From assembly GCA_026125285.1 (NCBI GenBank), contig JAHCLO010000012.1, positions 85,008 through 149,007 of the forward strand: a DNA stretch of 64,000 nt, given 5' to 3'. The stretch comes from Verrucomicrobiia bacterium. GTDB taxonomy: Bacteria; Verrucomicrobiota; Verrucomicrobiia; Limisphaerales; JADLHS01. The position numbers and the translations under genes are program-made. Below are positions 1 through 59,179 of the stretch, in pieces. A model generated the notes under the pieces. It was given only the letters and a program-made list of their open reading frames with translations. It was not told where the DNA came from and did no database searches. Positions within the stretch are counted from its first letter, which is position 1, and each line of letters opens with the position of its first letter.

Positions 1-1
1 G

Positions 2-202
2 GAGGTTCTCGTTACCGATGAGTCACAGCCTGTGCGGAAGTTCTCGGTGCCCAGCGAACTCAAGTCTGAGTTGCGTCGATTGCTTTCCGATTTGGGGCTG
101 GATGCCTGGAGCCTTTACGGCGGTCCAGATGCGCTGGGCAAGTCGATTACGAGCCGCCTCTGGAAGTCCAAGATAGCACCTGTAATTGCGACCCGGACAT
201 AA
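2..202 (+). CDS. 3' end (66 codons) of a gene starting upstream of the window; tail weakly resembles FRG-domain protein C-termini
   Basis: Frame 2 is open from the window edge to TAA at 200-202 (EVLVTDESQPVRKFSVPSELKSELRRLLSDLGLDAWSLYGGPDALGKSITSRLWKSKIAPVIATRT). It is absent from the ORF track because it has no start in the window. The family guess rests only on a remembered tail pattern. Confidence 0.3.
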   Translation, partial: EVLVTDESQPVRKFSVPSELKSELRRLLSDLGLDAWSLYGGPDALGKSITSRLWKSKIAPVIATRT

Positions 203-210
203 TCAAGCCG

Positions 211-819
211 ATGCGAGTCGCTATTCCGATCAAGGGCCATTCCGGCGACGTGGTGCTCGACCCGTTCTGCGACTGCGGCACGACGATTGACGCCGCCGAG
301 AAACTCGGCCGCGACTGGATCGGCATTGACGTGACGCAACGGGCCATTTCGCTCATCAAGAACCGCCTGCAAGACACCTACGGCCGCCGGCTGAAATTCC
401 TCTCCGGTGGCAGCCGACGTGAGTCGGCTCAAACTTCTTCTGCTCCAGAAAGTCAGAGCGGACTCACCTCCGCTGCTACCGCGGCCACGGCGCGCGGCGT
501 TCACGCCGCTTCAACCCCCGAACACGAGGCGAGGTCGAAGCGGGCTGAAGCCCGCGCTCCCGAAGGTAGGGCGGGCAGTCCTCTGCCCGCCGCAGAACAT
601 GGCGAGTCGTCCGCATCACCCGGCGGCGCGCACGGAGTGACGCGCCCTACCCGAGATGGCGCGCACGGAGTGACGCGCCCTACCGACGTTCACGTCGTTC
701 GCATCATCGGCGAACCCAGCCCCAGCCCGATTATGAAAAAGCGTGGCTCACCGCGGCGCTTCCGCTTACATTTCCGCGCATGGGCACGCTCTACTACGGC
801 GACAACCTCGACATCCTGA
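211..819 (+). pseudogene. 5'-truncated DNA methyltransferase remnant (copy 0 of the tandem array): SAM-binding motif I region plus hairpin-repeat linker, reading through the duplication junction
   Basis: Contains GDVVLDPFCDCGTTIDAAEKLGRDWIGIDV (motif I, FxGxG type) but no DPPF catalytic half. From about 245 it aligns with 1738-2312 and 3231-3704 with scattered substitutions (DPFCDCG vs DPFCGCG, TQRAISL vs TQLAISL). Confidence 0.6.
399..684. repeat. Hairpin-repeat (REP-like) block inside methyltransferase copy 0
   Basis: Same module order as 3385-3670. Here both distal modules are the GGCGCGCACGGAGTGACGCGCCCTACC type. Confidence 0.7.
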
Positions 820-2312
820 GGCGTTACCTCAAGGATGAATCGGTGGACCTCGTTTATCTCGACCCGCCCTTCAACTCCGCGCAGAACTACAACGCCTTCT
901 TTTCGGAAAAGGACGGCAGCGCCGCCGCCAGCCAGATTCACGCCTTCGAGGACACCTGGCATTGGGACATCGAAACCAAACGCGCCTACGACGCCGTGAC
1001 CGAGCAGCCCGGCAAAGTCTCCGACGTGATGCAGGCGTTCTACACCTTTCTCGGCGGCAACGACATGATGGCCTACCTCACCATGATGTCCGCGCGCCTC
1101 GTCGAACTGCGCCGCGTCCTCAAACCCACCGGCTCGCTCTACCTCCACTGCGACCCGACCGCCTCGCATTACCTCAAGCTGCTGTGCGATGCCATCATGG
1201 GGAAAGACAATTTCCGAAATGAAATCGTTTGGAAGCGAGCGAGCGCACACAACGACCCTCGAAAGTGCGGCGACATTCACGACACAATCCTGTTTTACTC
1301 CAAGAGCAACACTTACATTTGGAATCCCCAGTACACCAAGTACACGCAAGATTACCTCGATGCCGAATGGAATGAACTGCCATCAGGTCGTTACTGGAAA
1401 GCTGAGAACATGCTTGATCCGCGAAACTCGATGGAACTGTTCGATTTCAAAGGAACAAAAGCTCGTTGGAGAACGAGCCATGAGAAATTGATGGAACTCT
1501 GGAACGCTCCGCAGACAGACGTTCCAAATAGCCATGGAAGAATCAAACTTAGGAAGGATGGGAAGCCCTCCAAACGCTGCCGCATCATGTTCCTGGATGA
1601 ACTCCCCGGCGTGCCGCTGCAGAGCATCTGGCCAGACATCCCCTCACTACGCGGCGGCGCTGCCGAACGTCTCGGCTACCCGACGCAAAAGCCGGTGGCG
1701 TTGCTGGAGCGGATCATCCAGGCCAGCAGCAATCCCGGCGACGTGGTGCTCGATCCCTTCTGTGGCTGCGGCACGACGATTGACGCCGCCGAGAAACTCG
1801 GCCGCGACTGGATCGGCATTGACGTGACCCAACTGGCCATTTCGCTCATCAAGAACCGCCTGCAAGACACCTACGGCCGCCGGCTGAAATTCATCTCCGG
1901 TAGCAACCGACGTGAGTCGGCTCAAACTTCTTCTGCTCCAGAAAGTCAGAGCGGACTCACGTCCGCTGCTACCGCGGCCACGGCGCGCGGCGTTCACGCC
2001 GCTTCACCCCCCGAACACGAGGCGACGTCGAAGCGGGCTGAAGCCCGCGCTCCCGAAGGTAGGGCGGGCAGTCCTCTGCCCGCCGCCGAACCTGGCGAGT
2101 CGTCCGCATCTCCCGACGGCGCGCAGGGGACTGCGCGCCCTACCCGAGATGGCGCGCACGGAGTGACGCGCCCTACCGACGTTCACGTCGTTCGCATCAT
2201 CGGCGAACCCAGCCCCAGCCCGATTATGAAAAAGCGTGGCTCACCGCGGCGCTTCCGCTTACATTTCCGCGCATGGGCACGCTCTACTACGGCGACAACC
2301 TCGACATCCTGA
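780..2312 (+). CDS. N6-adenine/N4-cytosine DNA methyltransferase (N6_N4_Mtase family, beta-class motif order), copy 1 of the array. It lacks the nuclease-like C-terminal domain and ends in junction-derived sequence.
   Basis: Motif IV LVYLDPPFNS near the N-terminus and motif I VLDPFCGCGTT near residue 320. The N-terminal ~375 aa are identical to the 2273..4204 product. After IIGEP the frame runs into the duplicated 5' leader (SPSPIMKKRGSPRRFRLHFRAWARSTT...) and overlaps the next copy's start. Confidence 0.75.
   Translation: MGTLYYGDNLDILRRYLKDESVDLVYLDPPFNSAQNYNAFFSEKDGSAAASQIHAFEDTWHWDIETKRAYDAVTEQPGKVSDVMQAFYTFLGGNDMMAYLTMMSARLVELRRVLKPTGSLYLHCDPTASHYLKLLCDAIMGKDNFRNEIVWKRASAHNDPRKCGDIHDTILFYSKSNTYIWNPQYTKYTQDYLDAEWNELPSGRYWKAENMLDPRNSMELFDFKGTKARWRTSHEKLMELWNAPQTDVPNSHGRIKLRKDGKPSKRCRIMFLDELPGVPLQSIWPDIPSLRGGAAERLGYPTQKPVALLERIIQASSNPGDVVLDPFCGCGTTIDAAEKLGRDWIGIDVTQLAISLIKNRLQDTYGRRLKFISGSNRRESAQTSSAPESQSGLTSAATAATARGVHAASPPEHEATSKRAEARAPEGRAGSPLPAAEPGESSASPDGAQGTARPTRDGAHGVTRPTDVHVVRIIGEPSPSPIMKKRGSPRRFRLHFRAWARSTTATTSTS
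1892..2177. repeat. Hairpin-repeat (REP-like) block inside methyltransferase copy 1
   Basis: Shifted by 1493 bp from 3385-3670, with a few substitutions concentrated in this block (SGSN/SGSS, TSAATAATA/TAAATAVTE, SPDG/SPGG). Confidence 0.7.
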
Positions 2313-4204
2313 GGCGTTACCTCAAGGATGAATCGGTGGACCTCGTTTATCTCGACCCGCCCTTCAACTCCGCGCAGAACTACAACGCCTTCTTTTCGGA
2401 AAAGGACGGCAGCGCCGCCGCCAGCCAGATTCACGCCTTCGAGGACACCTGGCATTGGGACATCGAAACCAAACGCGCCTACGACGCCGTGACCGAGCAG
2501 CCCGGCAAAGTCTCCGACGTGATGCAGGCGTTCTACACCTTTCTCGGCGGCAACGACATGATGGCCTACCTCACCATGATGTCCGCGCGCCTCGTCGAAC
2601 TGCGCCGCGTCCTCAAACCCACCGGCTCGCTCTACCTCCACTGCGACCCGACCGCCTCGCATTACCTCAAGCTGCTGTGCGATGCCATCATGGGGAAAGA
2701 CAATTTCCGAAATGAAATCGTTTGGAAGCGAGCGAGCGCACACAACGACCCTCGAAAGTGCGGCGACATTCACGACACAATCCTGTTTTACTCCAAGAGC
2801 AACACTTACATTTGGAATCCCCAGTACACCAAGTACACGCAAGATTACCTCGATGCCGAATGGAATGAACTGCCATCAGGTCGTTACTGGAAAGCTGAGA
2901 ACATGCTTGATCCGCGAAACTCGATGGAACTGTTCGATTTCAAAGGAACAAAAGCTCGTTGGAGAACGAGCCATGAGAAATTGATGGAACTCTGGAACGC
3001 TCCGCAGACAGACGTTCCAAATAGCCATGGAAGAATCAAACTTAGGAAGGATGGGAAGCCCTCCAAACGCTGCCGCATCATGTTCCTGGATGAACTCCCC
3101 GGCGTGCCGCTGCAGAGCATCTGGCCAGACATCCCCTCACTACGCGGCGGCGCTGCCGAACGTCTCGGCTACCCGACGCAAAAGCCGGTGGCGTTGCTGG
3201 AGCGGATCATCCAGGCCAGCAGCAATCCCGGCGACGTGGTGCTCGATCCCTTCTGTGGCTGCGGCACGACGATTGACGCCGCCGAGAAACTCGGCCGCGA
3301 CTGGATCGGCATTGACGTGACCCAACTGGCCATTTCGCTCATCAAGAACCGCCTGCAAGACACCTACGGCCGCCGGCTGAAATTCATCTCCGGTAGCAGC
3401 CGACGTGAGTCGGCTCAGACTTCTTCTGCTCCAGAAAGTCAGAGCGGACTCACGGCCGCTGCTACCGCGGTCACGGAGCGCGGCGTTCACGCCGCTTCCA
3501 CCCCCGAACACGAGGCGACGTCGAAGCGGGCTGAAGCCCGCGCTCCCGAAGGTAGGGCGGGCAGTCCTCTGCCCGCCGCCGAACCTGGCGAGTCGTCCGC
3601 ATCACCCGGCGGCGCGCAGGGGACTGCGCGCCCTACCCGAGATGGCGCGCACGGAGTGACGCGCCCTACCGAGGTTCACGTCGTCCGCATCATCGGCGAA
3701 CCCACCACGCCCAGCGAAGCCGCCACGCTCGCGGAGGAGGACAAGTTCCAGTTCCAATGGTGGGCGCTGGGTCTCGTCGGCGCGCGACCCGTCGAGCAGA
3801 AGAAAGGCGCAGACCACGGCATTGACGGCAAAATTCTTTTCCGCGACGACCCGCGTGCCGCGAAGCCCGAGCAGATCATCATTCAAGTCAAAGGCGGCAA
3901 GACCGGCGTGAAGGACGTGCGCGATTTGCGCGGCGTGCTCGACCGCGAGAAAGCCGCCATCGGCGTTTTGATCTCCCTGCAACCGCCCACCGGCCCGATG
4001 GAAACCGAATCCGCGAGCGCCGGGTTTTACGAACACAAGACCAACCAGCAAAAGTATCCGCGCCTCCAGCTCCGCACGGTGAAGGAATTGATGGAAGGCA
4101 AGGGCCTCGAACGCCCCACGAGTGCCGCCGCACTGGAGGAGACGTTCAAGAAGGCGCCGAAGGCAAAAGCCCGGGGCCACGAACAAAGCGCATTGGGACT
4201 TTAG
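2273..4204 (+). CDS. DNA methyltransferase (N6_N4_Mtase family) fused to a C-terminal Mrr-like PD-(D/E)xK restriction-endonuclease-fold domain; full-length copy 2
   Basis: DPPF and FCGCGTT motifs as in copy 1. The C-terminus FQFQWWALGLVGARPVEQKKGADHGIDGKILF...QIIIQVKGGKTGVKDVRDLRGVL matches the Mrr_cat pattern (GIDG ... QVK). Confidence 0.85.
   Translation: MGTLYYGDNLDILRRYLKDESVDLVYLDPPFNSAQNYNAFFSEKDGSAAASQIHAFEDTWHWDIETKRAYDAVTEQPGKVSDVMQAFYTFLGGNDMMAYLTMMSARLVELRRVLKPTGSLYLHCDPTASHYLKLLCDAIMGKDNFRNEIVWKRASAHNDPRKCGDIHDTILFYSKSNTYIWNPQYTKYTQDYLDAEWNELPSGRYWKAENMLDPRNSMELFDFKGTKARWRTSHEKLMELWNAPQTDVPNSHGRIKLRKDGKPSKRCRIMFLDELPGVPLQSIWPDIPSLRGGAAERLGYPTQKPVALLERIIQASSNPGDVVLDPFCGCGTTIDAAEKLGRDWIGIDVTQLAISLIKNRLQDTYGRRLKFISGSSRRESAQTSSAPESQSGLTAAATAVTERGVHAASTPEHEATSKRAEARAPEGRAGSPLPAAEPGESSASPGGAQGTARPTRDGAHGVTRPTEVHVVRIIGEPTTPSEAATLAEEDKFQFQWWALGLVGARPVEQKKGADHGIDGKILFRDDPRAAKPEQIIIQVKGGKTGVKDVRDLRGVLDREKAAIGVLISLQPPTGPMETESASAGFYEHKTNQQKYPRLQLRTVKELMEGKGLERPTSAAALEETFKKAPKAKARGHEQSALGL
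3385..3670. repeat. Hairpin-repeat (REP-like) block forming the in-frame linker of methyltransferase copy 2
   Basis: Five palindromic modules. (1) 25-nt arms at 3392-3416 and 3442-3466, core GGTAGCAGCCGACGTGAG. (2) GCGGGC-TGAA-GCCCGC at 3526-3541. (3) GGCGGGCAG-TCCT-CTGCCCGCC at 3556-3577. (4) GGCGCGCAG-GGGA-CTGCGCGCC at 3611-3632. (5) GGCGCGCACGGAGTGACGCGCC at 3644-3665. Related copies lie in non-coding DNA at 27239-27317 and 58606-58676. Confidence 0.75.
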
Positions 4205-4206
4205 CG

Positions 4207-5148
4207 ATGCGTGGGAGCGATCTGGAGTCGGGGCCTTTGGAATTGGAGTGGAACTTCGACGCCGTACCGGGCGCCGAACTGGTGGCCTGCTGTTATTGGG
4301 AGTATGCGCGGGAATCGGCCTTCATCCGGGACGTGCGCCGGCAGGGTCTGCAAAACTGGCGGGCGGGGGGCAAATGGGACCTCGCCCTCAGCACTGATAT
4401 TCAGAAGCTCCAGAGCATTGGGTATCGCGCCGAGGTTTTTCTGCGCGGCTTTTTCTTTGAACCCGACATCATCCATCAAAGCACCGATGCCAACGCGCCG
4501 CACTACCGCCACCCAGACGCCCCGCCCATCACCGGGAGTTTTCCCAAACCCTGGCAGGCGTTGTGCCCGGAGGAGCGCGCCTATCGGGCCGGTTGTTGCC
4601 GGAAGAACAGCGCGTCGGAACCCACCCCGTTTCGACTGGCCCATTGGGGCTGGGCGAAAGACCTGGCGCAACACGTGGAGTCGCAGGCCCGCCGGATGCG
4701 CGCCGAGTTGCCCCCGGATCAGGGGCTGGGTCCGATCCGGCCGGCTCTGTGTTTCAGCAACGCGGAAACGCTGCTGGTGGACATTGACTGGGCGCAGTTC
4801 ACCAACGACCAGATTGCGCAGGCGTTCCGCCGCCACTTGAAAGCGATCCGGCCCCCGCACCTGCCGGAGCCGGATGGCCGGGGGCACAAGCCGGGAGACT
4901 GGCGGGCGCAACTGACGCGGCTGGCGGTGATGCGGTTGTTGTCGCGGTTCACGACGTTGGAATTAGTGGCCAAAAACGCGTTCCCGGCAATCTGGCAGAC
5001 CAAGCAGTTTGCGGGACGCAAATGGGGAGACATCACCAAATGGCATGATGCCCGCCGGGATGCGCGAAGGTTGTTTCATCGGCTGTTCCCGTTCCTGCCC
5101 GCCACCGAAAAGCCGCTTTCCTGGGTGCGTCGCCGTCCCGGCCAGTAG
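4207..5148 (+). CDS. Hypothetical protein (313 aa), start 3 nt after the methyltransferase stop
   Basis: Long ORF with coding-like composition. ATG at 4207 follows TAG at 4202-4204. No motif I can assign (LEWNFDAVPGAELVACCYWEYARESAFIRD...). Confidence 0.6.
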   Translation: MRGSDLESGPLELEWNFDAVPGAELVACCYWEYARESAFIRDVRRQGLQNWRAGGKWDLALSTDIQKLQSIGYRAEVFLRGFFFEPDIIHQSTDANAPHYRHPDAPPITGSFPKPWQALCPEERAYRAGCCRKNSASEPTPFRLAHWGWAKDLAQHVESQARRMRAELPPDQGLGPIRPALCFSNAETLLVDIDWAQFTNDQIAQAFRRHLKAIRPPHLPEPDGRGHKPGDWRAQLTRLAVMRLLSRFTTLELVAKNAFPAIWQTKQFAGRKWGDITKWHDARRDARRLFHRLFPFLPATEKPLSWVRRRPGQ

Positions 5149-22427: not shown

Positions 22428-22606
22428 GGAGGCGCGAGTGTATGTCAGTCCGCCCGCAGGCTGCAACTGTCCATTGCCAGGAGTGATCCTCAGTCACGAA
22501 GAAACCGAACCCGCTTGAGAATGAAACGAAAATTGTGTCGCCATTTCGCGAGATGTGGCCGATGTTTCTTACGACAATGGGGTGTTGGTTGAGTCATAGT
22601 CACCAA

Positions 22607-25600
22607 ATGAAACGAGCGATATCCTCTGGGGCCGCTGTGGTCTTTGCCAGCGTGATGCTCGCGTTGACTGCGCACACTCAAAGTGTCGTGCTTAACGAGA
22701 TCATGGCCGCCAACAGCCGGACGCTGGCGGATGAGGATGGCGACTTTCCCGACTGGTTTGAACTGTACAATGCGGGTGAGGAAGCGGTGAACCTGGCGGG
22801 GTGCGGGATTTCTGACGAGGCTGCAACCCCGTTCAAATGGGTCTTTGGAGCGGTGACGATCATGCCCGGCGAATTCCTAATCGTTTTCGCCTCTGACAAA
22901 GATCGCGCGGGCACGAGCCTCCATACCAACTTCCGGATCAATGCGGCCGGCGAAGATCTGTTCCTGACCGATCCCGGTGGCACGTTGCTGGATTACTTCC
23001 CCGGACGCTTGATGCCACAGGATCATTCGGTGGGTCGCCAGCCGGACGGCACCGGCAACTGGGTTTATTTTAAGTCGCCCACGCCCCGCGCCGCGAATGT
23101 CACGGAGGGTTTCCACGGCTTGGTGGCGGCACCCATCTTCTCCCATATCTCCGGATTCCATCCGGCGCCGTTTCAACTGGCCATTCAATCGCCGGACCCC
23201 GAGACAGTCATCTACTACACGACGGACGGATCGTCGCCCACGCCGCAGCCTTTGCTGGGCAGCACTTACCGGATCAAGAATCTTTATCCCGATGGCGAAT
23301 TGATTACCCGGACCAATTTCTCTCAACTGTATTCCGGGCCGATTGCCATTGAAACCCCGGCGACGACGCCGGAGGACCTTTCACTGATCAACTTGGATGC
23401 GTTCCGCCGCCCCGTTTCCCCGCTCGTTCCCTGGGAGCCTCCTTTCAAGGGGATGGTGATTCGTGCCATTGCGGTTAAACCGGGTTACCTGCCCAGTCCA
23501 ATTGTAAGCGCCACCTATCTGATTCATTCCAATCTCCACGCCCGTTATTCACTGCCGGTGGTTTCGATCATGGCCGACGAGAGCAGCCTGTTCGACTACG
23601 AAACGGGCATTTTTGTCCCGGGCAAACCTTTCAGCGATTGGATGACAGAGAATCCCGAGGCGGAACTTCATTGGCTGGTGCCGGCAAATTATCACATGCG
23701 TGGCCGCGAATGGGAACGGCCGGTGCATTTCGAGTTCTTTGAACCCGACGGCACACTGGCGGTCAGCCAGATCGTGGGTCTGAGAGTTCAGGGCAATTCG
23801 TCCCGGACCCTTCCGCGAAAGCCGTTGCGCGTGTATGCCCGCGACGAATACGGCCCTGAGTGGCTGGAGCACGAATTGTTTACGGGGTTGCGCGCCCACG
23901 GCAAACCCGCGGAGGTCATGGACCGTTTCAAGCGAGTCAACTTGCGCAGCGAGTCGGATCAGGTCTGGTCAACTTACTTTCGAGATGTTTTCGCGCAGCG
24001 ACTGGTGGCTCATCTTGGGTTCGAGGTGCAAACGTATCGCCCGGTGGTACATTTCCTGAACGGAGAATACTGGGGACTGCTTAACATGCAGGAGCCCTAC
24101 GACGAGTATTTTGTCGCGGAACACTACGGCCTGGACCCCGACGAAGTCATCATCTTGGACGGAGGCTGGGGACCGAGTGTGCATGTGGGAGAGCCTTCCG
24201 ACGCGCTGCACTACCGGATGCTTCGCGATTATGCGGCCACCAACGACCTGAGCGTTGGCCTGCATTACGACTACCTGAACACCCAGATGGTGGTCACGAA
24301 TTTCATCAATTATCAGGTGGCGCATATTTATATGAATGCCACGGACTGGGGTGACAACGGGAACAACATCCGGTTTTGGCGAAAACGCACGGCGAACTTC
24401 GAGCCAAACACGCCGACGGGTCATGACGGTCGTTGGCGATGGATGATGTATGACGCGACCGCCACTTTCAGTGCGCCCGAGGCGAATACTCTGGCGCGCT
24501 GTATGGGAACCAACCCGCCGTTGGTCCTGTTTACGCGGCTCCTCGAGAATCGCGAGTTTCGGCATCAAGTGATCAACACCTTTGCGGACCAGATGAATAC
24601 GACGTTTCTGCCGGAGTGGGTCAAACAAGTCAGCACCAACGTTTATGAAGAGTTGCTCCCGGAACTGCCAGAACACAACGCCCGCTGGAATGGCAATATC
24701 AGCCCGATGTCAACAGTGTTTGCCGACGAACGTCCTGGTTACATGCGACAACACCTCGCCGACGTCTTCAACCTCAGCGGCACAGCGAGAGTGACGCTTA
24801 ATGTGGCAGACCCCCGGCAGGGGAAGGTCCAAATCAACTCGCTTCTGCTTGATGAGCACACAATTGGCATTCGCGGAGCGCCTTACCCGTGGTCCGGCAC
24901 CTACTTCAAGGACGTGCCCATCACGATTCGCGCCCTGCCGGCCGCAGGCTATCGTTTTGCGGGTTGGGCTGGACTGGAAGCGAGCGACCCTGAGTTGCTG
25001 GTGACCCTGACCGATGATCTCTCGCTGACCGCGCTATTCGAGCCGGACGCGCACATACTGGGAGACGGCCCTTACGAATTGGCATGCTGGGACGAAGCTG
25101 AACCCGCGGGCACTTATCCGCCCCGCCTGCTCTTCTACCAGACTTCGGTGGCGGATCCGGGGTTGCATGTGGAGATGGATTCCCTGTGGAGGCTGCCCTA
25201 CAACCTGGCGAGTCGCAGCCGGATCAATGGGTTAGGGGCTGATGGATTCGCCTTCATCAATACTTCCAATCCCCAGGACGTGGCCGGCGCGGGCTTCGTG
25301 GGGGCGGCAGTGTTGGCGCTCAACACCCTCGGACAGGATCAAGTGCTGGTAACATGGACGGCGGGAACAGTGGTCCCGAATGCGCGCGTTTATGGCATTC
25401 GCCTCCAATACCGGGTGGGTGCGGAGGGTCCGTTTCTGGATGTGCCCGACGCCCATGGAAATCCGGTTCAATACGTTTCCAGCGAGGTGGCCGGCCACCA
25501 GGAGGTAATCGGGCCGCTGTTGCTGCCGGCTGCGGCGAATCAGCAGCCGCGCGTCGAACTACGTTGGAAGTATTTTTACATCAGCGGCAACAGCGGAGCG

Positions 25601-27211
25601 CGGGCCCAGTTGCGCGTGGGTAACATCCAAGTGACGACGAGTATTCCCGAGGCGCATCAACTCGTTTTCGCGGAGGTGCCCGCGGTGGCTCAGGCGGCAC
25701 ACCCGATGGATCGAGTCGTGGTGCAAGTCCGGTCCGCGGAAGGATTGCTGGTGACAGATTTCGAAGGACCGGTGGAACTCGCGATCGCCGACTACCCTGG
25801 ACAATTGACAGGGAGCACGCTGCAAACGGCAACCGCCGGCGTTGTGTCTTTCGACGACATGGTAATTGAGAAGTACGGTTCCAAGATTCTTACTGCAGCC
25901 GCAGACGGAATGTTGTCGGCGGTCAGCGATCCAATTGAGGTTGTCGGCCTGACGGAAGTGATCATGCCCCGCTATCTCCAAGGTGCGCAGCCCGAGAATC
26001 GGGACCGTGTCCCGTTTGCGTACCGGTTGCGTTTGGACGGCCTGCAAGCCGGCGCCACGTATCGGTATGCCAATCGCGTGGTCACGGCTGAGGATTCCCG
26101 GACTCAGGACGGTGCCGGCAATATGATTTTTGTCAAGACGGGTGGGCAGCCCTTTATTCGCTCCACCGATTCGCCGCGCTTTCGCGCGTCCGACCGCGAT
26201 TCGCGTCACAGCGAATTCGTGACTGACAGTGAGGGGAGTTACGAGGGGTGGTTCATCACTGAGCCTTCGGGAAACGCGAGATTCACGCCGGGGAACACGG
26301 TGTTTATACGGTTGTTGCTGAATGACGGAGATGGCGGCGAGGAAATCCTTCACCTCCTCACGGGAGGCAGCCCGGTGGAGGTATTGACATTCGGTGCCGG
26401 CGAACAGGAAGGCTCGGCGCTGTACGCGGTTTCCTCGGCGACCAGCCAGAACTTTGTTGTGCTCTATGCCGACAGCGAAGGACTTGGTCGCCCAGTGGCC
26501 GCGACCGTGGTGGAAGCCAGTGGCGCCACATTGGATGCTGCTTACGCCACATTTTATGTTTCCGAAGTGGCAGGCAGGTCAGGTCGTTGGGGAACATTGC
26601 TTGCCAACCGGCTGCCCAGCGGCGTGGGCCGGATCGAGGAACGAGATCTTCTGACCGGTGACGTCGTCTCAGTGTTCGAGGATACCGATGGACTCCGGCC
26701 GACAAGGCACTTGGACACGGGTACCACGGCCGTGGGCATTCGCGTGCCGGGACCGGGAGCGAATGCGTATTTGGTTTGGCAGTCCCGGAACTTCTCGCTC
26801 GCTGAATTGGCGGATGAGACGATGGCCGGACCGTTGGCTGATGCCGATGAGGATGGACTCCCTAATCTAATGAAGTGTGCGCTTGGCCTGAACCTTTTTG
26901 AGCCATGTCAGGAATGTATGCCGACGGTGCATCTCGAGGAAAACGAAACCGCTAATTATCTGGTCTTTCGTTACCGTCGGCTGATTCACGATGCTGGACT
27001 TGATTACGTGGTCGAGCAGTCCGCCGATTTGCAGTCGTGGAACGACATCACGAACGACTTGATCGAACGAGAGCCGCCGCAGCCGACTGGCGACGGGATT
27101 ACCATTCTCGTCACTGGATTGCTGCCGGTTGAAAATCCCCCCGCCCAGTGCTTTCTGCGTTTGCGCATCAGCCATGATGCTTCATCTCCGCCCGAACCAG
27201 TATCATATTAG
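22607..27211 (+). CDS. Giant secreted protein: lamin-tail domain, CotH kinase-family domain and a long C-terminal extension
   Basis: Signal peptide MKRAISSGAAVVFASVMLALTAHTQ. LTD: VVLNEIMAANSRTLADEDGDFPDWFELYNAGEEAVNLAG. CotH-like: RVQGNSSRTLPRKPLRVYAR, FLNGEYWGLLNMQE, NNIRFWR. Confidence 0.8.
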   Translation: MKRAISSGAAVVFASVMLALTAHTQSVVLNEIMAANSRTLADEDGDFPDWFELYNAGEEAVNLAGCGISDEAATPFKWVFGAVTIMPGEFLIVFASDKDRAGTSLHTNFRINAAGEDLFLTDPGGTLLDYFPGRLMPQDHSVGRQPDGTGNWVYFKSPTPRAANVTEGFHGLVAAPIFSHISGFHPAPFQLAIQSPDPETVIYYTTDGSSPTPQPLLGSTYRIKNLYPDGELITRTNFSQLYSGPIAIETPATTPEDLSLINLDAFRRPVSPLVPWEPPFKGMVIRAIAVKPGYLPSPIVSATYLIHSNLHARYSLPVVSIMADESSLFDYETGIFVPGKPFSDWMTENPEAELHWLVPANYHMRGREWERPVHFEFFEPDGTLAVSQIVGLRVQGNSSRTLPRKPLRVYARDEYGPEWLEHELFTGLRAHGKPAEVMDRFKRVNLRSESDQVWSTYFRDVFAQRLVAHLGFEVQTYRPVVHFLNGEYWGLLNMQEPYDEYFVAEHYGLDPDEVIILDGGWGPSVHVGEPSDALHYRMLRDYAATNDLSVGLHYDYLNTQMVVTNFINYQVAHIYMNATDWGDNGNNIRFWRKRTANFEPNTPTGHDGRWRWMMYDATATFSAPEANTLARCMGTNPPLVLFTRLLENREFRHQVINTFADQMNTTFLPEWVKQVSTNVYEELLPELPEHNARWNGNISPMSTVFADERPGYMRQHLADVFNLSGTARVTLNVADPRQGKVQINSLLLDEHTIGIRGAPYPWSGTYFKDVPITIRALPAAGYRFAGWAGLEASDPELLVTLTDDLSLTALFEPDAHILGDGPYELACWDEAEPAGTYPPRLLFYQTSVADPGLHVEMDSLWRLPYNLASRSRINGLGADGFAFINTSNPQDVAGAGFVGAAVLALNTLGQDQVLVTWTAGTVVPNARVYGIRLQYRVGAEGPFLDVPDAHGNPVQYVSSEVAGHQEVIGPLLLPAAANQQPRVELRWKYFYISGNSGARAQLRVGNIQVTTSIPEAHQLVFAEVPAVAQAAHPMDRVVVQVRSAEGLLVTDFEGPVELAIADYPGQLTGSTLQTATAGVVSFDDMVIEKYGSKILTAAADGMLSAVSDPIEVVGLTEVIMPRYLQGAQPENRDRVPFAYRLRLDGLQAGATYRYANRVVTAEDSRTQDGAGNMIFVKTGGQPFIRSTDSPRFRASDRDSRHSEFVTDSEGSYEGWFITEPSGNARFTPGNTVFIRLLLNDGDGGEEILHLLTGGSPVEVLTFGAGEQEGSALYAVSSATSQNFVVLYADSEGLGRPVAATVVEASGATLDAAYATFYVSEVAGRSGRWGTLLANRLPSGVGRIEERDLLTGDVVSVFEDTDGLRPTRHLDTGTTAVGIRVPGPGANAYLVWQSRNFSLAELADETMAGPLADADEDGLPNLMKCALGLNLFEPCQECMPTVHLEENETANYLVFRYRRLIHDAGLDYVVEQSADLQSWNDITNDLIEREPPQPTGDGITILVTGLLPVENPPAQCFLRLRISHDASSPPEPVSY

Positions 27212-27238: not shown

Positions 27239-27317
27239 GGCAGGGCGTGTCACTCCGTGCGTGCCGTTGGGGAAGCGACGCGTGAGTTGCGGCGCGCACG
27301 GAGTGCCGCGCCCCACC
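27239..27317. repeat. Inverted pair of the GGCRCGCACGGAGTGMCRCGCCC hairpin repeat
   Basis: 27291-27317 is GGCGCGCACGGAGTGCCGCGCCCCACC. The reverse complement of 27239-27265 is GGCACGCACGGAGTGACACGCCCTGCC. Same family as 3644-3670. Confidence 0.75.
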
Positions 27318-27597: not shown

Positions 27598-28974
27598 ATG
27601 AACCAACCTCATTCGGAATTCGACCTTTCGCCCGACCAGAAAGTGCATTTTCCGCCTGGACTGAACAATGCCTTCCTGTTTGCCACTTTCAACGCGCTCT
27701 CCTATCAAGTCATTCTGGCCGGGCCTATGATCCTGTACGCCAAGTCGCTGGGGGCGAGTGCGACCGTGCTCGGCATCATTGCGGGAATGATGCCCCTGTT
27801 GGTGATTTTTCAAATCCCCGCCGCCAGCCACATCAATCGCATCGGCTACCAACGCTTCGTCCTGGCGGGCTGGAGCACGCGCGTCATGTTCATCTTCCTC
27901 ATCGCTCTGGTGCCGCTGACCGGCGGACTGCTTGATCCGCGCAATCGTCTGGCGCTGTTATTGGTCCTGCTGTTTGGCTTCAATCTTTCCCGCGGAATCT
28001 CCAGTTGTGCCTGGTTGCCCTGGATCACCGCGTTGGTGCCAGCGACCTTGCGGGGAAAGTATCTGGTCCGGGATGCTGCCGTTCAGAATGTGGCTAGTTT
28101 TGTCGCGTTCCTGGTGGCGGCTGGCACATTGGCGGGACCAACTTATCCCTGGCAGTTCGCCATGCTCTTCGCCTTCAGCGGCGCCATGGGGGCAATAAGT
28201 CTGGTTTTCTTGAAACGAATACCTGACGTCGAACCTCCGGAAGAGCCCCACCTTTCCACGGCGCGTGTCCCTTGGCTGGAGATGGCGCGCTATGCGCCGT
28301 TCCGCAAGTTGCTGCATACGGTGGTTGCCTGGTCGGTGGCTTATGGCGGCATTTCCGCCTTTACGGTGGCGTTCCTGAAAGGGCAGGGCGGCATGTCCGA
28401 GGGGAAGATTCTGCTCGTCAGCTCCGCGGCATTTATTGGCGGCTGGAGCAGCCTGTGGTTTCTTGGCTCACAACTGGACCGGCTCGGCAGCAAACCCGTG
28501 CTGAGTTTTGCTTCAGCCGCCTGGATCGCCGTGTTGGCGGGCTGGTTTGCCCTGTCTGGCCGGTTGTTTCCCACCGCTCTCACGGGAGTCCTGGCGCTGC
28601 AGCTCTTCATGGGCTTGCTGGCTGCGCTGGTCAGCATGGCCAACACCCGGCTCGCCATGTCCATCATTCCCGTGATGGGTCGCAACCATTTCTTCGCCAT
28701 CTACTCGGTCGTCAGCAACGTAGCCTTGGGCCTCGCTCCGATCGGGTGGGGGCTGCTCATTGACGCTGTGGGTAATCGCGCGCCCGTCTGGTTGGGAGTG
28801 GAATGGAATCGCTACAGCATTTTCTTCGTGGCCGCGGCAGCGGTGTTTGCCGTGACGCTCGCGTCCACGCGAAAACTTGACGAGCCGCAAGCCGCCAGTC
28901 TCGAAGAACTGCTCCGCGAGATCCTGATTCAATCCCCGCAACGCTTCTGGTTGCGTTTATGGCCCCGGGGGTGA
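27598..28974 (+). CDS. MFS transporter
   Basis: 458 aa, about 12 hydrophobic segments, with conserved loop-like RIGYQRF after TM2. Confidence 0.75.
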   Translation: MNQPHSEFDLSPDQKVHFPPGLNNAFLFATFNALSYQVILAGPMILYAKSLGASATVLGIIAGMMPLLVIFQIPAASHINRIGYQRFVLAGWSTRVMFIFLIALVPLTGGLLDPRNRLALLLVLLFGFNLSRGISSCAWLPWITALVPATLRGKYLVRDAAVQNVASFVAFLVAAGTLAGPTYPWQFAMLFAFSGAMGAISLVFLKRIPDVEPPEEPHLSTARVPWLEMARYAPFRKLLHTVVAWSVAYGGISAFTVAFLKGQGGMSEGKILLVSSAAFIGGWSSLWFLGSQLDRLGSKPVLSFASAAWIAVLAGWFALSGRLFPTALTGVLALQLFMGLLAALVSMANTRLAMSIIPVMGRNHFFAIYSVVSNVALGLAPIGWGLLIDAVGNRAPVWLGVEWNRYSIFFVAAAAVFAVTLASTRKLDEPQAASLEELLREILIQSPQRFWLRLWPRG

Positions 28975-36562: not shown

Positions 36563-39500
36563 ATGAACACGCCAATCAAAATCAAAATCGAGCAACAGTT
36601 GCCAACAAACAAAAGTGCTATCCACCGGTCTGCGCTGCTCCTGTTCCTTCTCAGCGTGGTTTCCATTCAAGCACAACTGCTCCCGGCCCCTTCTCTGATC
36701 GGGCCAGCAAATGGCGCGACGGGAGTTTCAACGACGCCGACCTTGAGTTGGACTTCAGTGACGGGAGCCAACCGCTACTGGGTGATCATGTCCACCAGTC
36801 AGGCGGATTTGCCGACTGATCCGAGTGCGGTCAGTTGTCCAGGCTGCGTCAATACCGGCGTTAGCGGAGTCACTGGTTCGACTAGCTACACTCTTCCCAA
36901 TGCGTTTCCGTACGGTGGCACCACCAGGACTCTCAATCCAGGCACCACGTACTACTGGAAAGTGCAGGGCTTTGTTGCGGGCGGCCAAAACGGCAACTAT
37001 TCGGCTGTGCGCAGCTTCACCACCGCTGGAGCGGTGCAACTGCCTACCGTTCAGACAGTGAACGCTTCCTCGGTAACTGCGTCGTCCGCTGTGCTCCACG
37101 GCACGATCGCCAGTGACGGCGGCTCCACGATCGTTGAACGGCGGTTCGATTGGGGAAACTCTTCGGGGAACCTCAACCAATTCACCGCAAACGTGAGCAT
37201 CTCAGGGAACAACTTTAGCTACTCCCTCAGCGGGCTGTCTCCAAACACAACGTATTATTTTCGGGCGTGGGCCAAGAACGGCAGTTCCCAAGTCGGTCCT
37301 TGCACCTCGACGCCGGGTTGGGGGTGCGGCAGCATTTTGAGTTTCACGACATCCACGCTCAACTACACGATCAGCGTGAGCGCCTCGCCAAGTGGGGGCG
37401 GAACGGTGGGCGGGGGCGGGACGTATGCGGCGGGCAGTTCGCGCACGGTGACCGCGACCGCCAACAGCGGCTACACGTTTGTCAACTGGACGGAAGGCGG
37501 GAGCGTGGTCAGTTCGTCGGCCAGCTACACCTTTACCTTGAACGCCAACCGCACCCTGGTCGCCAACTTCACGGCCACGCCGGTCAATTACACGATCAGC
37601 GTGAACGCTTCGCCGAGTGGAGGCGGCACGGTGGGCGGGGGCGGGACGTATGCAGCTGGCAGTTCACGGACGGTGACCGCGACGGCCAACAGCGGCTACA
37701 CGTTCGCCAACTGGACGGAAGGTGGAACGGTGGTCAGCACGTCGGCCAGCTATACCTTCACCCTGAACGCCAACCGGACACTGGTCGCCAACTTCACGTC
37801 CAGTCCGGTCAACTACACAATCAGCGTGAGCGCCTCGCCCGGTGCGGGCGGCACGGTGAGCGGGGGCGGGACGTATGCGGCGGGCAGTTCGCGGACGGTG
37901 ACCGCGACGGCCAACAGCGGTTACACGTTCGCCAACTGGACGGAGGGGGGCACGGTCGTCAGTTCGTCGGCTAGTTACACTTTCACCTTGGGCGCCAATC
38001 GGGCCTTGGTTGCCAACTTTGCGGTGAGCCAAGCCCTGTCATTCAGGTTTCCACTGGCGGGGTACACTCCCTACACTGCTCCGGCTTCATCTGTGTTTGA
38101 TCATTCCGGACTCCGATACGTTGCTAACAATGAGGTGGTTGCTTTTACAGGAGAGAAAGGAACCGTTCGGGATAATGTCGAACCGCCAGTCGTGACAGGT
38201 GGCCAAACATTATACAGCTACAAGAAAACAGATGGCGCTACTTTTTCCTGCAATGGGAATTATCAAGGAACAAGTCTAACAGGGCCAACAACGCTCAACT
38301 ACGACGGACACCCGGGCTGGGATTACGCAGTGCCAGTAGGCACTCCTGTCTACGCGGTTGCGGACGGTCAAGTTGTTCTGGTCACGAGCGATTCAGCTTC
38401 TGGGAAATATGTTCGTCTCCAACATGGATCAGATTATCAGTCGCAGTATTTGCATTTGGACGAGCAATTGGTTGTCCAGAACGCGAATGTAACAAAAGGC
38501 CAGTTGATTGGGAAAAGTGGGAACTCAGGTGGAGTAGCCCCTCATTTGCATTTTGAAGTCAAGAAACTCGTAGCTGGCAATTGGGTTTCCGTTGACCCTT
38601 ACGGTTGGACAGGGGCAGGCTCTGACCCTTATCAGGTTGCCAACATAAACCTTTGGGAAGGCGGAACCGCACTGAATTACACGATCAGCGTGAGCGCCTC
38701 GCCAAGTGGGGGCGGAACGGTGGGCGGGGGCGGGACGTATGCGGCGGGCAGTTCGCGCACGGTGACCGCGACCGCCAACAGCGGCTACACGTTTGTCAAC
38801 TGGACGGAAGGCGGGAGCGTGGTCAGTTCGTCGGCCAGCTACACCTTTACCTTGAACGCCAACCGCACCCTGGTCGCCAACTTCACGTCCAGTCCGGTCA
38901 ACTACACAATCAGCGTGAGCGCCTCGCCCGGTGCGGGCGGCACGGTGAGCGGGGGCGGGACGTATGCGGCTGGCAGTTCACGGACGGTGACCGCGACGGC
39001 CAACAGCGGCTACACGTTCGCCAACTGGACGGAAGGTGGAACGGTGGTCAGCACGTCGGCCAGCTACACCTTCACCCTGAACGCCAACCGCACCCTTGTT
39101 GCCAACTTCACGACCACGCCTCTGCAGCCGCCGAAGCAACTCACAGAAGCCGTTGTGAGCAACAGTTTCTTCCGATTCACCATAAACGGTCCCGTCGGGA
39201 GTGGTTTCGTCATTCAAGTGTCGTCGAACCTTACGCACTGGACATCCCTGCTCACGAACACCGTCCCGAGCAGCGGGACGCGTGCTCTGAGTGAGCCCGT
39301 GCCAACCAATTCGATGCGCCGGTTTTACCGGGCGGTGCCGTTGTCCCAAGGCCCGCTCATTCTTCAGCCAGGGCCGGAAGACGGCCAGGACATTTGGACC
39401 ACGAGCTGGTACTCCAACGGAACCAATACGGTCGGCGCCAACGGAATCGCGAACGAGACGCTCCAGGTTGGAGGCTGGGCGGACTACTATCACGTCTATC

Positions 39501-39889
39501 TGAAGTTCAACCTCACGGGACTACCTTCCCATGCTTCCTCTGCCGTAATTGAACTGTACTCGTTCACCGGCTGGCACAGTGGATTTGTAAACGTCAGCAT
39601 GAATTTGGATCGCGTCACCCAGGATTGGGAGGCGATCTTTGCCACCACGATTATGAAATGGGTGGACCAGCCCGCCGCAGTCAATGTCCGGACGATTCCC
39701 GCTGCGGCAAAAGACAGTTGGTACTCGATTGACGTGACCGATCTGTACAACGCTTGGCAGGCGGGGACGTATCCCAATCACGGCATCGCCCTTCGTCCGA
39801 CGGGCAATGCGAACCAATGGAATTACTTCTGGAGTTCGCGATACATGGTTGATCCCAACCTGCGGCCCAAATTGGTCGTTACGCCGTGA
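36563..39889 (+). CDS. Large secreted multidomain protein: FN3-like N-terminus, 3+2 InlB-B/Listeria-Bacteroides-type repeats flanking an M23 peptidase domain, DNRLRE-like C-terminal domain
   Basis: Signal/TM LLFLLSVVSIQAQ. 77-aa repeats YTISVSASPSGGGTVGGGGTYAAGSSRTVTATANSGYTFVNWTEGG.... M23 motifs HPGWDYAVPVGTPVYAVADG and GGVAPHLHFEV. C-terminal YYHVYLKFNLTGLPSHASSAVIELYS. Confidence 0.85.
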   Translation: MNTPIKIKIEQQLPTNKSAIHRSALLLFLLSVVSIQAQLLPAPSLIGPANGATGVSTTPTLSWTSVTGANRYWVIMSTSQADLPTDPSAVSCPGCVNTGVSGVTGSTSYTLPNAFPYGGTTRTLNPGTTYYWKVQGFVAGGQNGNYSAVRSFTTAGAVQLPTVQTVNASSVTASSAVLHGTIASDGGSTIVERRFDWGNSSGNLNQFTANVSISGNNFSYSLSGLSPNTTYYFRAWAKNGSSQVGPCTSTPGWGCGSILSFTTSTLNYTISVSASPSGGGTVGGGGTYAAGSSRTVTATANSGYTFVNWTEGGSVVSSSASYTFTLNANRTLVANFTATPVNYTISVNASPSGGGTVGGGGTYAAGSSRTVTATANSGYTFANWTEGGTVVSTSASYTFTLNANRTLVANFTSSPVNYTISVSASPGAGGTVSGGGTYAAGSSRTVTATANSGYTFANWTEGGTVVSSSASYTFTLGANRALVANFAVSQALSFRFPLAGYTPYTAPASSVFDHSGLRYVANNEVVAFTGEKGTVRDNVEPPVVTGGQTLYSYKKTDGATFSCNGNYQGTSLTGPTTLNYDGHPGWDYAVPVGTPVYAVADGQVVLVTSDSASGKYVRLQHGSDYQSQYLHLDEQLVVQNANVTKGQLIGKSGNSGGVAPHLHFEVKKLVAGNWVSVDPYGWTGAGSDPYQVANINLWEGGTALNYTISVSASPSGGGTVGGGGTYAAGSSRTVTATANSGYTFVNWTEGGSVVSSSASYTFTLNANRTLVANFTSSPVNYTISVSASPGAGGTVSGGGTYAAGSSRTVTATANSGYTFANWTEGGTVVSTSASYTFTLNANRTLVANFTTTPLQPPKQLTEAVVSNSFFRFTINGPVGSGFVIQVSSNLTHWTSLLTNTVPSSGTRALSEPVPTNSMRRFYRAVPLSQGPLILQPGPEDGQDIWTTSWYSNGTNTVGANGIANETLQVGGWADYYHVYLKFNLTGLPSHASSAVIELYSFTGWHSGFVNVSMNLDRVTQDWEAIFATTIMKWVDQPAAVNVRTIPAAAKDSWYSIDVTDLYNAWQAGTYPNHGIALRPTGNANQWNYFWSSRYMVDPNLRPKLVVTP
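37361..38020. repeat. Intragenic tandem repeat block 1 (three ~231-bp units)
   Basis: Units start at about 37361, 37592 and 37823, each encoding a 77-aa repeat. Confidence 0.8.
38675..39110. repeat. Intragenic tandem repeat block 2 (two ~231-bp units)
   Basis: 38678-38887 is identical by eye to 37364-37573. The second unit is a mosaic of unit 3 (5' half) and unit 2 (3' half). Confidence 0.8.
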
Positions 39890-43825: not shown

Positions 43826-44102
43826 TCGGGGTGGAGATTAACGAGCACGCGTGAGTGGGGCAAAGCAAAGCGGTACTGACCGTGGTACTAACCGCAGCGA
43901 GGTCGGCGGGGTCGGCGAATGCATCAGCCGAATCCGCCGACACAGACGCGCAGACCCTGAACTCGGAGTCGCGACCGCTTCACGGCGAAACGCCCGCAGT
44001 TGCCGGTGCAAAAGATGTTCAGTGTTTGCCAAAATTAGTGAAGCCAATAGTCTGCAGAGAGGCTAAAAGGCTGTTATGAACTCTCACCAGTTCACATTGT
44101 GC

Positions 44103-44160
44103 GGTTCTTGTCCATCGGTTCTTGTCCATCGGTTCTTGTCCATCGGTTCTTGTCCATCGG
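44103..44160. repeat. Perfect tandem repeat (GGTTCTTGTCCATC) x4, 14-bp unit
   Basis: Four exact copies plus GG, about 150 bp upstream of the 44310 start. The unit length is not a multiple of 3. Confidence 0.9.
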
Positions 44161-56982: not shown

Positions 56983-57138
56983 CTGCGTTGGTCATTTATT
57001 CTACAGTCTGGGCAGAACTGTCCAGCAGTTCGTTTTCGGGAAAGCGCGTGGCCCGCTGGTTCGATGGTCACTGACAAACAGTGAATCCCTGACCAAAGTC
57101 CATGCCCGGCTTGCACGGGTGGGCTGAGGCGTTGTTGG

Positions 57139-57410
57139 CGTAGCGCAGAGTTGAACTCTGCTGTATCACAGAATTGGATTCTGCGGCCCCAGGGCGGGGT
57201 CAAACCACGCCCGGGTTTCGCATCACCGCGCCGACTGCAAGTCGGCGATCCAGCCCAGCGCGGCCCGACCGCAACCCAAGGAGCGCGGACAGCTTTGTCC
57301 GCGCGAACCTCGGCCTTGGAACTCGCGGACAAGGCTGTCCGCGCTCCGGGAAATGCGTCGCGGCTTGGGACGATTGCCAAAGATACGGCAGAATTCAATT
57401 CTGCGCTACG
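57139..57410. repeat. Intergenic array of GC-rich hairpin repeats (at least two families, each present as an inverted pair)
   Basis: GCAGAGTT-G-AACTCTGC at 57145-57161 and GCAGAATT-C-AATTCTGC at 57388-57404, inverted with respect to each other within about 28-nt related elements. GCGCGGACA-GCTT-TGTCCGCGC at 57283-57304 and GCGGACA-AGGC-TGTCCGC at 57325-57342, also inverted copies. CGCCGACT-GCA-AGTCGGCG at 57229-57247. CAGAAT-TGG-ATTCTG at 57169-57183. Confidence 0.8.
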
Positions 57411-57559
57411 ATCCTGCGTTACGAGCGCCCACGCTCAGAGATGTCACTCGTGGCTGGAACCAATTTTGCTTTCCAGTTGAACCGACCGCATAGTACGGCC
57501 ACGCCTAACGCCTGAATCAGTGCGGGGCTTGGGCGGCGAAACAATGATCATTTGCGACC

Positions 57560-58300: not shown

Positions 58301-58572
58301 ACCGTCGCGCGCTTCATCCGCACAATCCCAGAGGCTCGATTTCGACGCGTATGCCGTCTGGCGTCGGGTTGCCGAATTTTCCACCATCCCCGCGCATCGC
58401 CCGCGCCATGTCTGCCCAGCGGTTGGAGTTGATCGAGTCAACGTCTCTCCAACACCATTGCCCTTTGGGGTTCTTTGCTGGCTTCGGCGGTATCAATCCG
58501 CGCGGCTCAAGACGGCGGGCCGCGAACGGCCCGGCGCCGCTTCCAGCGGACGAGGGCCGGGGTGAGACTTCG

Positions 58573-59080: not shown

Positions 59081-59179
59081 TTTTCTTTACGTTTGGCAAC
59101 CTCAGGGCCGGGCGTTAGCCTTCCCACAGCAACTCAGATGCAACAAGCAAGGGATATCAGACCGCGCAAAATTCGAAAC

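Follow-up and report, generated by a model that had tools for sequence, protein, structure and literature searches.

In-frame insertion of a REP hairpin cluster as the probable interdomain linker of a methyltransferase-Mrr fusion gene in Verrucomicrobiota

Repetitive extragenic palindromic (REP) sequences located wholly inside open reading frames (ORFs) and read in frame have been described in several species by Di Nocera, De Gregorio & Rocco (2013, BMC Genomics 14:522, PMC3733652). According to that survey, the tetranucleotide GTAG marks the REPs of the large GTAG superfamily and is also what REP-associated tyrosine transposases (RAYTs) cleave, and intragenic REPs are most numerous in the verrucomicrobium Opitutus terrae. 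Intragenic REP dimers or groups encode 20-30 amino acids, and clusters of 43-82 amino acids occur in Thauera and Rickettsia conorii; it was suggested that such inserts may be neutral owing to a position in flexible linkers or loops (PMC3733652). The Rickettsia palindromic elements (RPEs; Ogata et al. 2000, cited in the same paper) are palindromic selfish repeats found in frame in many unrelated and apparently functional genes; RPE-4 and RPE-6 are of the CGTC type, and no dedicated transposase has been reported for CGTC REPs (PMC3733652). The REPIN is a mobile unit composed of two inverted REPs and a short spacer, and a REP-flanked, usually single-copy RAYT is its presumed mobiliser (Bertels & Rainey; PMC8049555; bioRxiv 10.1101/2021.07.10.451892). 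In this study we analyzed 64,000 nucleotides of DNA of a Verrucomicrobiia bacterium (contig JAHCLO010000012.1; hereafter the window), in which the two domains of a predicted DNA methyltransferase (MTase)-Mrr fusion protein are separated by 95 codons. These codons very probably represent a cluster of REP units, namely three REPIN-like inverted doublets and a singlet, that lies in frame inside an already fused gene as a tolerated selfish insertion.

The host gene is a 643-residue ORF (2273-4204, + strand), which is the third and sole complete copy of a tandem array. In the Pfam search, PF01555 (N6_N4_Mtase) matched residues 22-357 with an E-value of 2e-45 and PF04471 (Mrr_cat) matched residues 509-571 with an E-value of 6e-7 (30 bits against a cutoff of 21), both above the curated cutoffs. 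PF22722 (NA-iREase1), a family of inactive restriction endonucleases, matched residues 508-606 with a score similar to that of PF04471. Residues 372-466, the linker, had no Pfam family match. Among 32 homologues, motif IV (DPPF, residues 28-31) and motif I (DPFCGCGTT, residues 325-333) of the MTase were invariant or nearly so, as were GADHGIDG (512-519) and QVKGG (538-542) of the Mrr-type PD-(D/E)xK core. The order of these features and the core residues fit a beta-class N6/N4 DNA methyltransferase joined to an Mrr-type PD-(D/E)xK domain, and the protein is predicted to be such an enzyme. More than 100 full-length homologues were found, and the best 120 homologues span 535-659 residues.

The linker (codons 372-466, ISGSSRRES...DGAHGVTRPT) corresponds to positions 3386-3670 of the + strand. 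A sequence-only reading of the window had described it as about 95 codons built from five palindromic modules of dispersed hairpin repeats. An inverted-repeat search and a mismatch-tolerant scan resolved the block into seven hairpin units rather than five, arranged as three inverted doublets and one singlet; the origin of the block from dispersed hairpin repeats was borne out by the folding and dispersal of the units given below. Doublet A/A' has arms at 3391-3422 and 3436-3467 (+), which are 88% complementary, with GTAG heads pointing outward and a 7-bp stem closed by a GTGA loop. The arms of doublet B/C (3475-3501 and 3520-3546, +) are 81% complementary with the outer ends GGAGCGCGG...CCGCGCTCC, and those of doublet D/E (3551-3581 and 3607-3637, +) are 90% complementary with the outer ends GGTAGGGCG...CGCCCTACC. 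The singlet F (GGCGCGCACGGAGTGACGCGCCCTACC, 3644-3670, +) carries its GTAG tag at the 3' end on the complementary strand. The arms of the doublets are 24-32 nt long and the spacers 13-25 nt. Each arm is in turn a small stem-loop of its own, for example AGCCGAC-GTGA-GTCGGCT or GGCGCGCAG-GGGA-CTGCGCGCC, and the seven units have stems of 6-9 bp and loops of 2-4 nt (10 nt in F), as is the case for the short, imperfect palindromes (20-40 bp) of REPs. D and the reverse complement of E differ by one compensatory stem pair and one loop base.

Units A, A', D, E and F, five out of seven, have the GTAG tag at the outer end of the palindrome. The tag is read as GGTAGC in A/A' and as GGTAGGGCG in D, and CGCCCTACC is the terminal sequence of both E and F. 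Its variant GTGG was found in A of array copy 1, in the linker doublet of one orthologue (L122) and in a doublet at window position 63078. The doublets and the singlet all have lengths that are multiples of 3 nt (75, 72, 87 and 27 nt). One of the three reading phases is closed by the TAG within GTAG; in each linker unit the phase is GGT-AGN...NCT-ACC, by which this TAG is avoided. The same cluster is present in copy 2 (1893-2177, +, inside ORF 780-2312), with nine differences from copy 3, and in copy 1 (400-684, +, ORF 211-819), where a second F stands in place of E. All three ORFs (211-819, 780-2312 and 2273-4204) are open across the REP block, in agreement with the sequence-only reading.

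When the 285-nt block was folded as RNA, the predicted energy was -181.4 kcal/mol vs -127.8 +/- 5.5 kcal/mol for 200 dinucleotide shuffles (z = -9.74), none of which reached the native value; two 285-nt coding controls from the host gene gave z values of -0.44 and -0.59. In an alignment of 15 family A arms, intragenic and intergenic, changes on both sides were found at three of the eight stem pairs, with a covariation score of 0.236 vs 0.061 +/- 0.027 for shuffles (0 of 500 reached it) and at most 0.07 for slid controls. These compensatory changes show the hairpin to be the conserved feature of family A. Rfam contained no family matching anywhere in the window, and the + strand of the linker showed no intrinsic terminator.

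A window-wide search revealed five intergenic doublets of the same build outside the array, which have the dimer organization in common with the linker; their intergenic status was judged by mapping of ORFs and of the G+C content at third codon positions (GC3). An F/F doublet occupies 27239-27317, between ORFs 22535-27211 and 27598-28974, and its arms at 27239(-) and 27291(+) match F with 3 and 2 mismatches out of 27, where no match is expected by chance. An A-family doublet with 26-nt, 100% complementary arms (58605-58630/58652-58677) lies between ORFs 57560-58300 and 59093-62425, and it has GTAGCNGCCGACGTGAG in common with unit A. It was at these two places (27239/27291 and 58606/58652) that the sequence-only reading had recognized non-coding relatives of the linker modules, and both are indeed situated between long GC3-rich ORFs. 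The remaining doublets are found at 57280-57347, with the B/C-type ends GGAGCGCGG...CCGCGCTCC, at 58875-58936, and at 63078-63155, just past the stop codon of ORF 62316-63053, with the ends GGTGGGGCG...CGCCCCACC (the GTGG variant of the D/E/F tag). A further hairpin family, GCCGACTGCAAGTCGGCGATCCAGC (57230-57255, translated as ADCKSAIQ), adjoins the doublet at 57280, and the stretches 56983-57559 and 58301-59092 around gene 57560-58300 are dense in REP-like elements. An assignment to miniature inverted-repeat transposable elements was rejected, since no direct repeat was seen by eye in the flanks of the doublets 27239-27317 and 58605-58677 and the arms themselves are hairpins with the GTAG tag, which is REP anatomy.

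The units are dispersed far beyond the window. In a one-genome-per-species collection, the F pattern GGCRCGCACGGAGTGNCRCGCC was found in at least 118 stretches, almost all of them metagenome-assembled genomes (MAGs) of Verrucomicrobiota (Limisphaerales, "subdivision 3", Udaeobacter and others). Several matches per genome were seen, often as -/+ pairs about 40 nt apart, and one of the stretches listed (L114) contained a homologue of the MTase-Mrr gene. The B/C pattern GGAGCGCGGSSTTCASSCCGC occurred in at least 120 metagenome stretches, and none of the listed matches was in an MTase linker. In other genomes, many +/- pairs of F and B/C pattern matches were about 40-90 nt apart. A degenerate D/E-type pattern matched in 24 of 121 loci, and D-type modules lay 25-90 nt from F in the 13 loci checked. 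It follows that the D...F heterodimer of the linker is itself a dispersed unit. Doublets of the A family were also found in L010, L026, L050, L060 and L074. The sequence-only reading had named confinement of the modules to the window as evidence to the contrary; the modules proved to be abundant elsewhere. Several F carriers (L016, L017, L034-L036, L038, L057, L058 and L069) have records titled Bifidobacterium, Bifidobacteriaceae or Klebsiella and contain the Verrucomicrobiota-type F doublet, which suggests mislabelled or contaminated bins. L026, also with an F match, is titled Akkermansia muciniphila, itself a verrucomicrobium.

A candidate mobilizing enzyme was found in one of these genomes. 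In L014, a Verrucomicrobiae MAG (CAVSMG010000006.1), ORF 3677-4348 matched NF047646, the REP-associated tyrosine transposase family, with an E-value of 8e-22 and 77.7 bits against a cutoff of 80, and it also matched the structure of E. coli TnpA-REP (PDB 4ER8, E-value 2e-5). F- and D-type REPs lie on either side of this RAYT (3206-3232, 3767-3840 and 4345-4470), and the region 3200-4480 has the makeup of a REPtron, a RAYT flanked by F-/D-type REPs. In the window, none of ten mid-sized ORFs matched a Y1 transposase, and a degenerate DNA pattern for P-D/E-H-x-H had 0 matches in the 64 kb.

The orthologues show both the empty and the filled site. In the 32-sequence alignment, the stretch from DTYG to IIGEP comprises 10 residues in ten Verrucomicrobiota proteins (e.g. 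LRDTYGDKIEIITIGEP) and 36-110 residues in the rest. In orthologues on plasmids of Mesorhizobium and Microbacterium (46-48% identity, two domains each), the domains are joined directly, so that the direct join occurs in Verrucomicrobiota, Alphaproteobacteria and Actinobacteria. The short join DKIEIITIGEP (11 residues) pairs residue for residue with RLKF and VRIIGEP around the insert, and the join YGDKIEIITIGEP of short orthologues aligns with YGRRLKF[insert]VRIIGEP with no residue lost. Since the short orthologues are already fused and their join aligns with the flanks of the insert, we concluded that the block is an insertion into a fused gene. The statement in the sequence-only reading that orthologous enzymes have only a short linker was thus correct. 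A homologous linker in unrelated taxa, which would have spoken against its proposal, was not found, the orthologues of other phyla being without the linker. Of the two origins it had offered, insertion of a composite repeat into a coding region agrees with the dispersed, lineage-specific and frame-keeping nature of the block; exaptation of an intergenic cluster by gene fusion does not, as the short orthologues are already fused.

The content of the filled site is variable. In-frame REP linkers at this site were found in more than 20 independent contigs from different studies, all with full-length ORFs, and the reading frame was open in every orthologue examined. The long-linker proteins have the common flanks KF(V)SG and (I/V)SLVRIIGEP and differ in the content between them. 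The DNA was read for eight of these linkers. That of L120 (protein P0003) consists of A/A' and B/C, that of L121 (P0005) of D/E and F, and that of L119 (P0019) of another module and D...F. In the linker of L123 (P0008), an A/A' doublet whose stem has a compensatory variant and whose spacer is (AAATCGG)n is accompanied by a CCCTCTCCTCC/GGAGGAGAGGG element. L122 (P0007) has a GTGG-tagged doublet, L124 (P0044) a GGGGAGCGCGG...CGCGCTCCCC doublet, L247 (P0001) another GGGGAGC...GCTCCCC doublet, and a pseudogene in L119 a GGAGTGCG...CGCACTCC doublet. The fold z values of the orthologue linkers range from -2.0 to -7.9. In P0013 and P0016 a further element is nested within the D...F spacer. The closest orthologue, P0001, is about 93% identical outside the linker (alignment count) and has the same variable target-recognition region, yet its 61-residue linker is unrelated to the 95-codon block. 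The content of the linker therefore turns over faster than the domains diverge. No empty site was found among the sampled members of the long-linker clade. On the sequences compared, one ancestral colonization, after which REPs were gained, lost, nested and replaced, would be more economical than repeated independent insertions. Tethers from 0 to about 100 residues long are apparently tolerated. The microsatellite that forms the A/A' spacer of L123 (3130-3175) is read as KSEIGNRKSEI, a peptide also present in P0011; in such a coding linker, slippage by one unit (7 nt) would shift the frame.

The same units are also read in frame in other genes of different Verrucomicrobiota MAGs. A query with 45 residues of the linker peptide gave no word-sharing candidates for other hosts, and an exhaustive search of representative sequences with all 95 residues gave only three matches, namely two MTase fragments and one spurious REP ORF. 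Other hosts were instead found by reading the ORFs around the DNA pattern matches. In a hand sample of 17 F-pattern sites, 13 were intergenic or in spurious ORFs, 3 were in frame inside conserved proteins, and 1 formed the C-terminal tail of a transporter of the major facilitator superfamily (L033). In a dihydrolipoamide-dehydrogenase-like protein (L023, 4272-5846), the D...F doublet, translated as GRAGSPLPAA...DGAHGVTRPT, occupies a gap of 39 residues in the comparison with PDB 1EBD. A NuoM/N-like subunit (L010, 3861-5573) contains an in-frame D...F doublet, GTAGSPLPAAGAHGDDGTHGVTRPT, and RibD (L018, 4488-5714) an in-frame F unit, KRRARSGAPY. The reading phase of the doublets in L023 and L010 is that of the linker (GGT-AGG-GCG...CCT-ACC). 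RibD of L018 appears to hold several REP-derived stretches: GSSRRDDRTAQRAAPT, SDSARAGLEIGAP and KRRARSGAPY.

The head-to-tail array fills positions 1-4204 of the window with a period of 1,493 bp. Copy 1 (ORF 211-819, +) is a 5'-truncated MTase fragment, and copy 2 (ORF 780-2312, +, 510 residues) comprises the complete MTase through the linker and an out-of-context end, with no nuclease domain. The two junctions are one identical novel joint, in which ...IIGEP is fused to the 48-bp leader 5' of the ATG. Copies 2 and 3 showed no difference over 1,265 bp (641-1905 vs 2134-3398), nine differences in the 286-bp linker block (about 3%) and two more just after it. If the changes were spread uniformly, the chance of such clustering in the linker would be about (306/1480)^11, or about 3e-8; the clustering of substitutions in the block, noted in the sequence-only reading, was thus confirmed for this pair. 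Two changes of copy 3 (3419 and 3478) raise the complementarity of the arms, and the exchange of E for F in copy 1 was clearly templated and conversion-like. As an explanation of the clustering, purifying selection acting on the MTase was rejected, because synonymous sites are identical over 1.1 kb too, where about 10 synonymous changes are expected at the rate of the linker. A diversity-generating retroelement was also rejected, because the changes (A>G, T>G, C>T, C>A, T>A and C>G) are not adenine-specific; a scan of ten mid-sized ORFs of the window gave no reverse transcriptase. It is possible that the MTase parts were recently homogenized by unequal crossing-over or gene conversion, that the REP block changes faster, or that the assembly combines a mixture of strains.

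In another genome (L119, 4346-4906), a second, decayed MTase-Mrr paralogue was observed about 5 kb upstream of the intact gene. It lacks residues ~6-300 (MGTLY is joined to PTQKP), contains an in-frame TAA and has a truncated Mrr domain, and its linker is a different REP doublet. Copy 1 of the window is a comparable remnant, and duplication followed by decay thus seems to be recurrent for the MTase-Mrr gene. A gene of about 310 codons without a Pfam match lies 3' of the MTase-Mrr gene both in the window (4207-5148) and in L119 (11824-12750), and is a possible conserved partner of this enzyme. The small ORF that follows it in the window resembles, by eye, a KTSC domain.

How could the cluster have come to reside in the gene? 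A RAYT-type HUH transposase would have brought REP or REPIN units, by way of single-stranded DNA, to the site that separates the codons of ...RLKF from those of VRIIGEP..., and selection would have kept only stop-free inserts with a length that is a multiple of three. Such in-frame inserts may have been kept because a peptide rich in Ala, Gly, Ser, Pro, Arg, Glu and Thr would be a harmless disordered tether at the domain boundary. The occupied site would then have gained, lost and swapped REPs, in the manner in which intergenic clusters, the bacterial interspersed mosaic elements (BIMEs), grow. Turnover of this kind would account for the different REP families found at the same codon in close orthologues. 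A tolerated selfish insertion, now serving as a passive flexible linker of variable length rather than as a purpose-built element, is the most economical explanation.

It is worth noting that several points weigh against this interpretation. B and C carry GGAG instead of GTAG, and GGAG is absent from the variants listed in PMC3733652. No RAYT gene was found in the 64-kb window, and mobilization in the source organism is inferred from a related MAG. Translation through the block would follow from the conservation of the reading frame. The AlphaFold2 model, built from the 32-sequence alignment, placed residues 374-466 in coil with a predicted local distance difference test score (pLDDT) of 22-30, and the whole model was poor (mean pLDDT 51.7), so that it indicates disorder of the linker weakly. 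The tally of coding and intergenic sites consists of the 17 hand-read sites, classified by ORF length and Pfam matches rather than with a gene caller. Finally, passive tolerance leaves the confinement of the substitutions of copies 2 and 3 to the linker unaccounted for.

There are other possible interpretations of these results. The interdomain codon might be an actively targeted landing pad for REPs, whose turnover is used by the cell: as REPs are gained, lost and converted through a RAYT or the hairpins themselves, the tether would change in length, and this, together with the tandem MTase-only copy, would alter how methylation and cleavage are balanced or coupled. The linker would thereby also become locally hypermutable, which would account for the 9/286 vs 0/1,265 differences between copies 2 and 3; on the whole, we regard this as unlikely. 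A role of the hairpins at the nucleic acid level, for which they would be kept, is an equally doubtful proposition. The hairpins could slow ribosomes, protect the MTase part from 3' exonucleases or set the MTase:nuclease ratio, or they could be DNA recombination or nicking sites that vary the linker and the array. The very stable predicted structure (-181 kcal/mol), the compensatory changes in the stems, the presence of hairpin doublets of whichever REP family in every member of the long-linker clade examined, the MTase-only copy upstream of the fusion gene and the confinement of the array substitutions to the linker would all agree with such a role. However, short-linker orthologues are hairpin-free, the REPs vary in identity, number and length, and some substitutions in individual array copies break stems (in unit A, 1906 of copy 2; in unit A', 468 of copy 1 and 3455 of copy 3). 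Neither a + strand terminator with a T-tail nor an Rfam family was detected, and the same elements lie in unrelated housekeeping genes. Moreover, compensatory variation is expected of REP subfamilies anyway (PMC3733652).

The linker could also be a captured intergenic region, if two neighbouring genes, one for the MTase and one for Mrr, had REPs in the space between them and became one when the stop codon was lost. REPs are normally found just downstream of stop codons (PMC3733652), and in L033 an ORF does continue into a REP at its 3' end. Such a fusion is nevertheless very improbable, because two-domain orthologues encoded in one ORF with the 10-residue join exist in Verrucomicrobiota, Alphaproteobacteria and Actinobacteria, no residue of the short join is lost around the insert, and the homologue matches included no split MTase/Mrr gene pair. 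We considered it still harder to believe that the block is an artefact, either a mis-assembled tandem repeat of mixed strains or a pseudogene with a frame open by coincidence. The odd change from complete identity over 1,265 bp to 3% divergence between copies would fit an assembly error, and decayed copies do exist (211-819 in the window; 4346-4906 in L119, with its in-frame stop). However, more than 20 independent contigs carry in-frame REP linkers at this site in full-length ORFs, the two tandem junctions are identical novel joints, as in a real duplication, and the domain residues are conserved. The insertion of REPs into an already fused gene, with subsequent tolerance, therefore remains our preferred explanation.

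Two further repeats were observed elsewhere in the window. A perfect tandem repeat with a 14-bp unit in 4.2 copies (CGGTTCTTGTCCAT) lies at 44102-44160, about 150 bp upstream of the 924-residue ORF 44310-47084, in a stretch in which no GC3-rich, coding-like ORF was detected. Tandem repeats of 225 bp with 86-89% matches (37359-38019 and 38678-39116) lie within the 1,108-residue ORF 36563-39889 and probably encode a surface-protein domain of 75 residues in repeated form.

The locus provides a clear comparative case in which selfish hairpin repeats have become a component of a functioning protein; close orthologues include sites with no insert, sites with it and sites filled in several other ways. 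In-frame REP insertion turns out to be common in Verrucomicrobiota: the same repeats are in frame in core metabolic genes of uncultured members, and in the collections scanned the repeat sequences occurred almost only in Verrucomicrobiota DNA. Through REP-derived peptides such as GRAGSPLPAA, DGAHGVTRPT and SGLTSAAT, protein annotation in this phylum becomes inflated and confusing. What is known of REPs or of restriction-modification enzymes is not changed by this case, unless the linker-restricted divergence reflects REP-driven local mutagenesis.

BIMEs are mosaic REP clusters of E. coli intergenic regions and bind integration host factor, gyrase or Pol I. The linker shares with them several REP units in alternating orientation with short spacers; BIMEs are intergenic, whereas this cluster appears to lie in a coding frame. 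RPE-1 is a single longer element of about 100-150 bp. The mode of in-frame insertion is alike in the RPEs, the classical parallel, and in this linker, but the family differs, the present units being GTAG-tagged, verrucomicrobial and outside the families RPE-1 to RPE-8, of which the short ones have the CGTC tag. The RPE hosts are obligate intracellular alphaproteobacteria, whereas here GTAG REP doublets occur with a RAYT in a related genome. As for the REPIN-RAYT system, from which the likely mechanism is taken, the linker doublets share the build of REPINs and the RAYT of L014 is flanked by the same REPs. REPINs have been described as extragenic, however, whereas here a number of heterodimers, of D paired with E or with F, are part of coding sequence, and the compensatory changes preserve the local hairpins, not the long REPIN hairpin. 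The closest likeness is to the intragenic GTAG and CGTC REPs of PMC3733652: in common are short GTAG-tagged stem-loops that are frequently inverted dimers, mostly intergenic and in some cases in frame. The likeness to the O. terrae REPs, whose numbered families are GTAG-17 to GTAG-20, is judged here by anatomy and tag. In comparison with those cases, the present cluster is larger (seven units, 95 residues), it sits exactly at the domain boundary of a restriction-modification-type enzyme, and at least six REP families replace one another at one codon across the orthologues. In-frame REP insertion was already documented in 2013, and the linker is an unusually large and well-documented further case of it, not a new kind of system.

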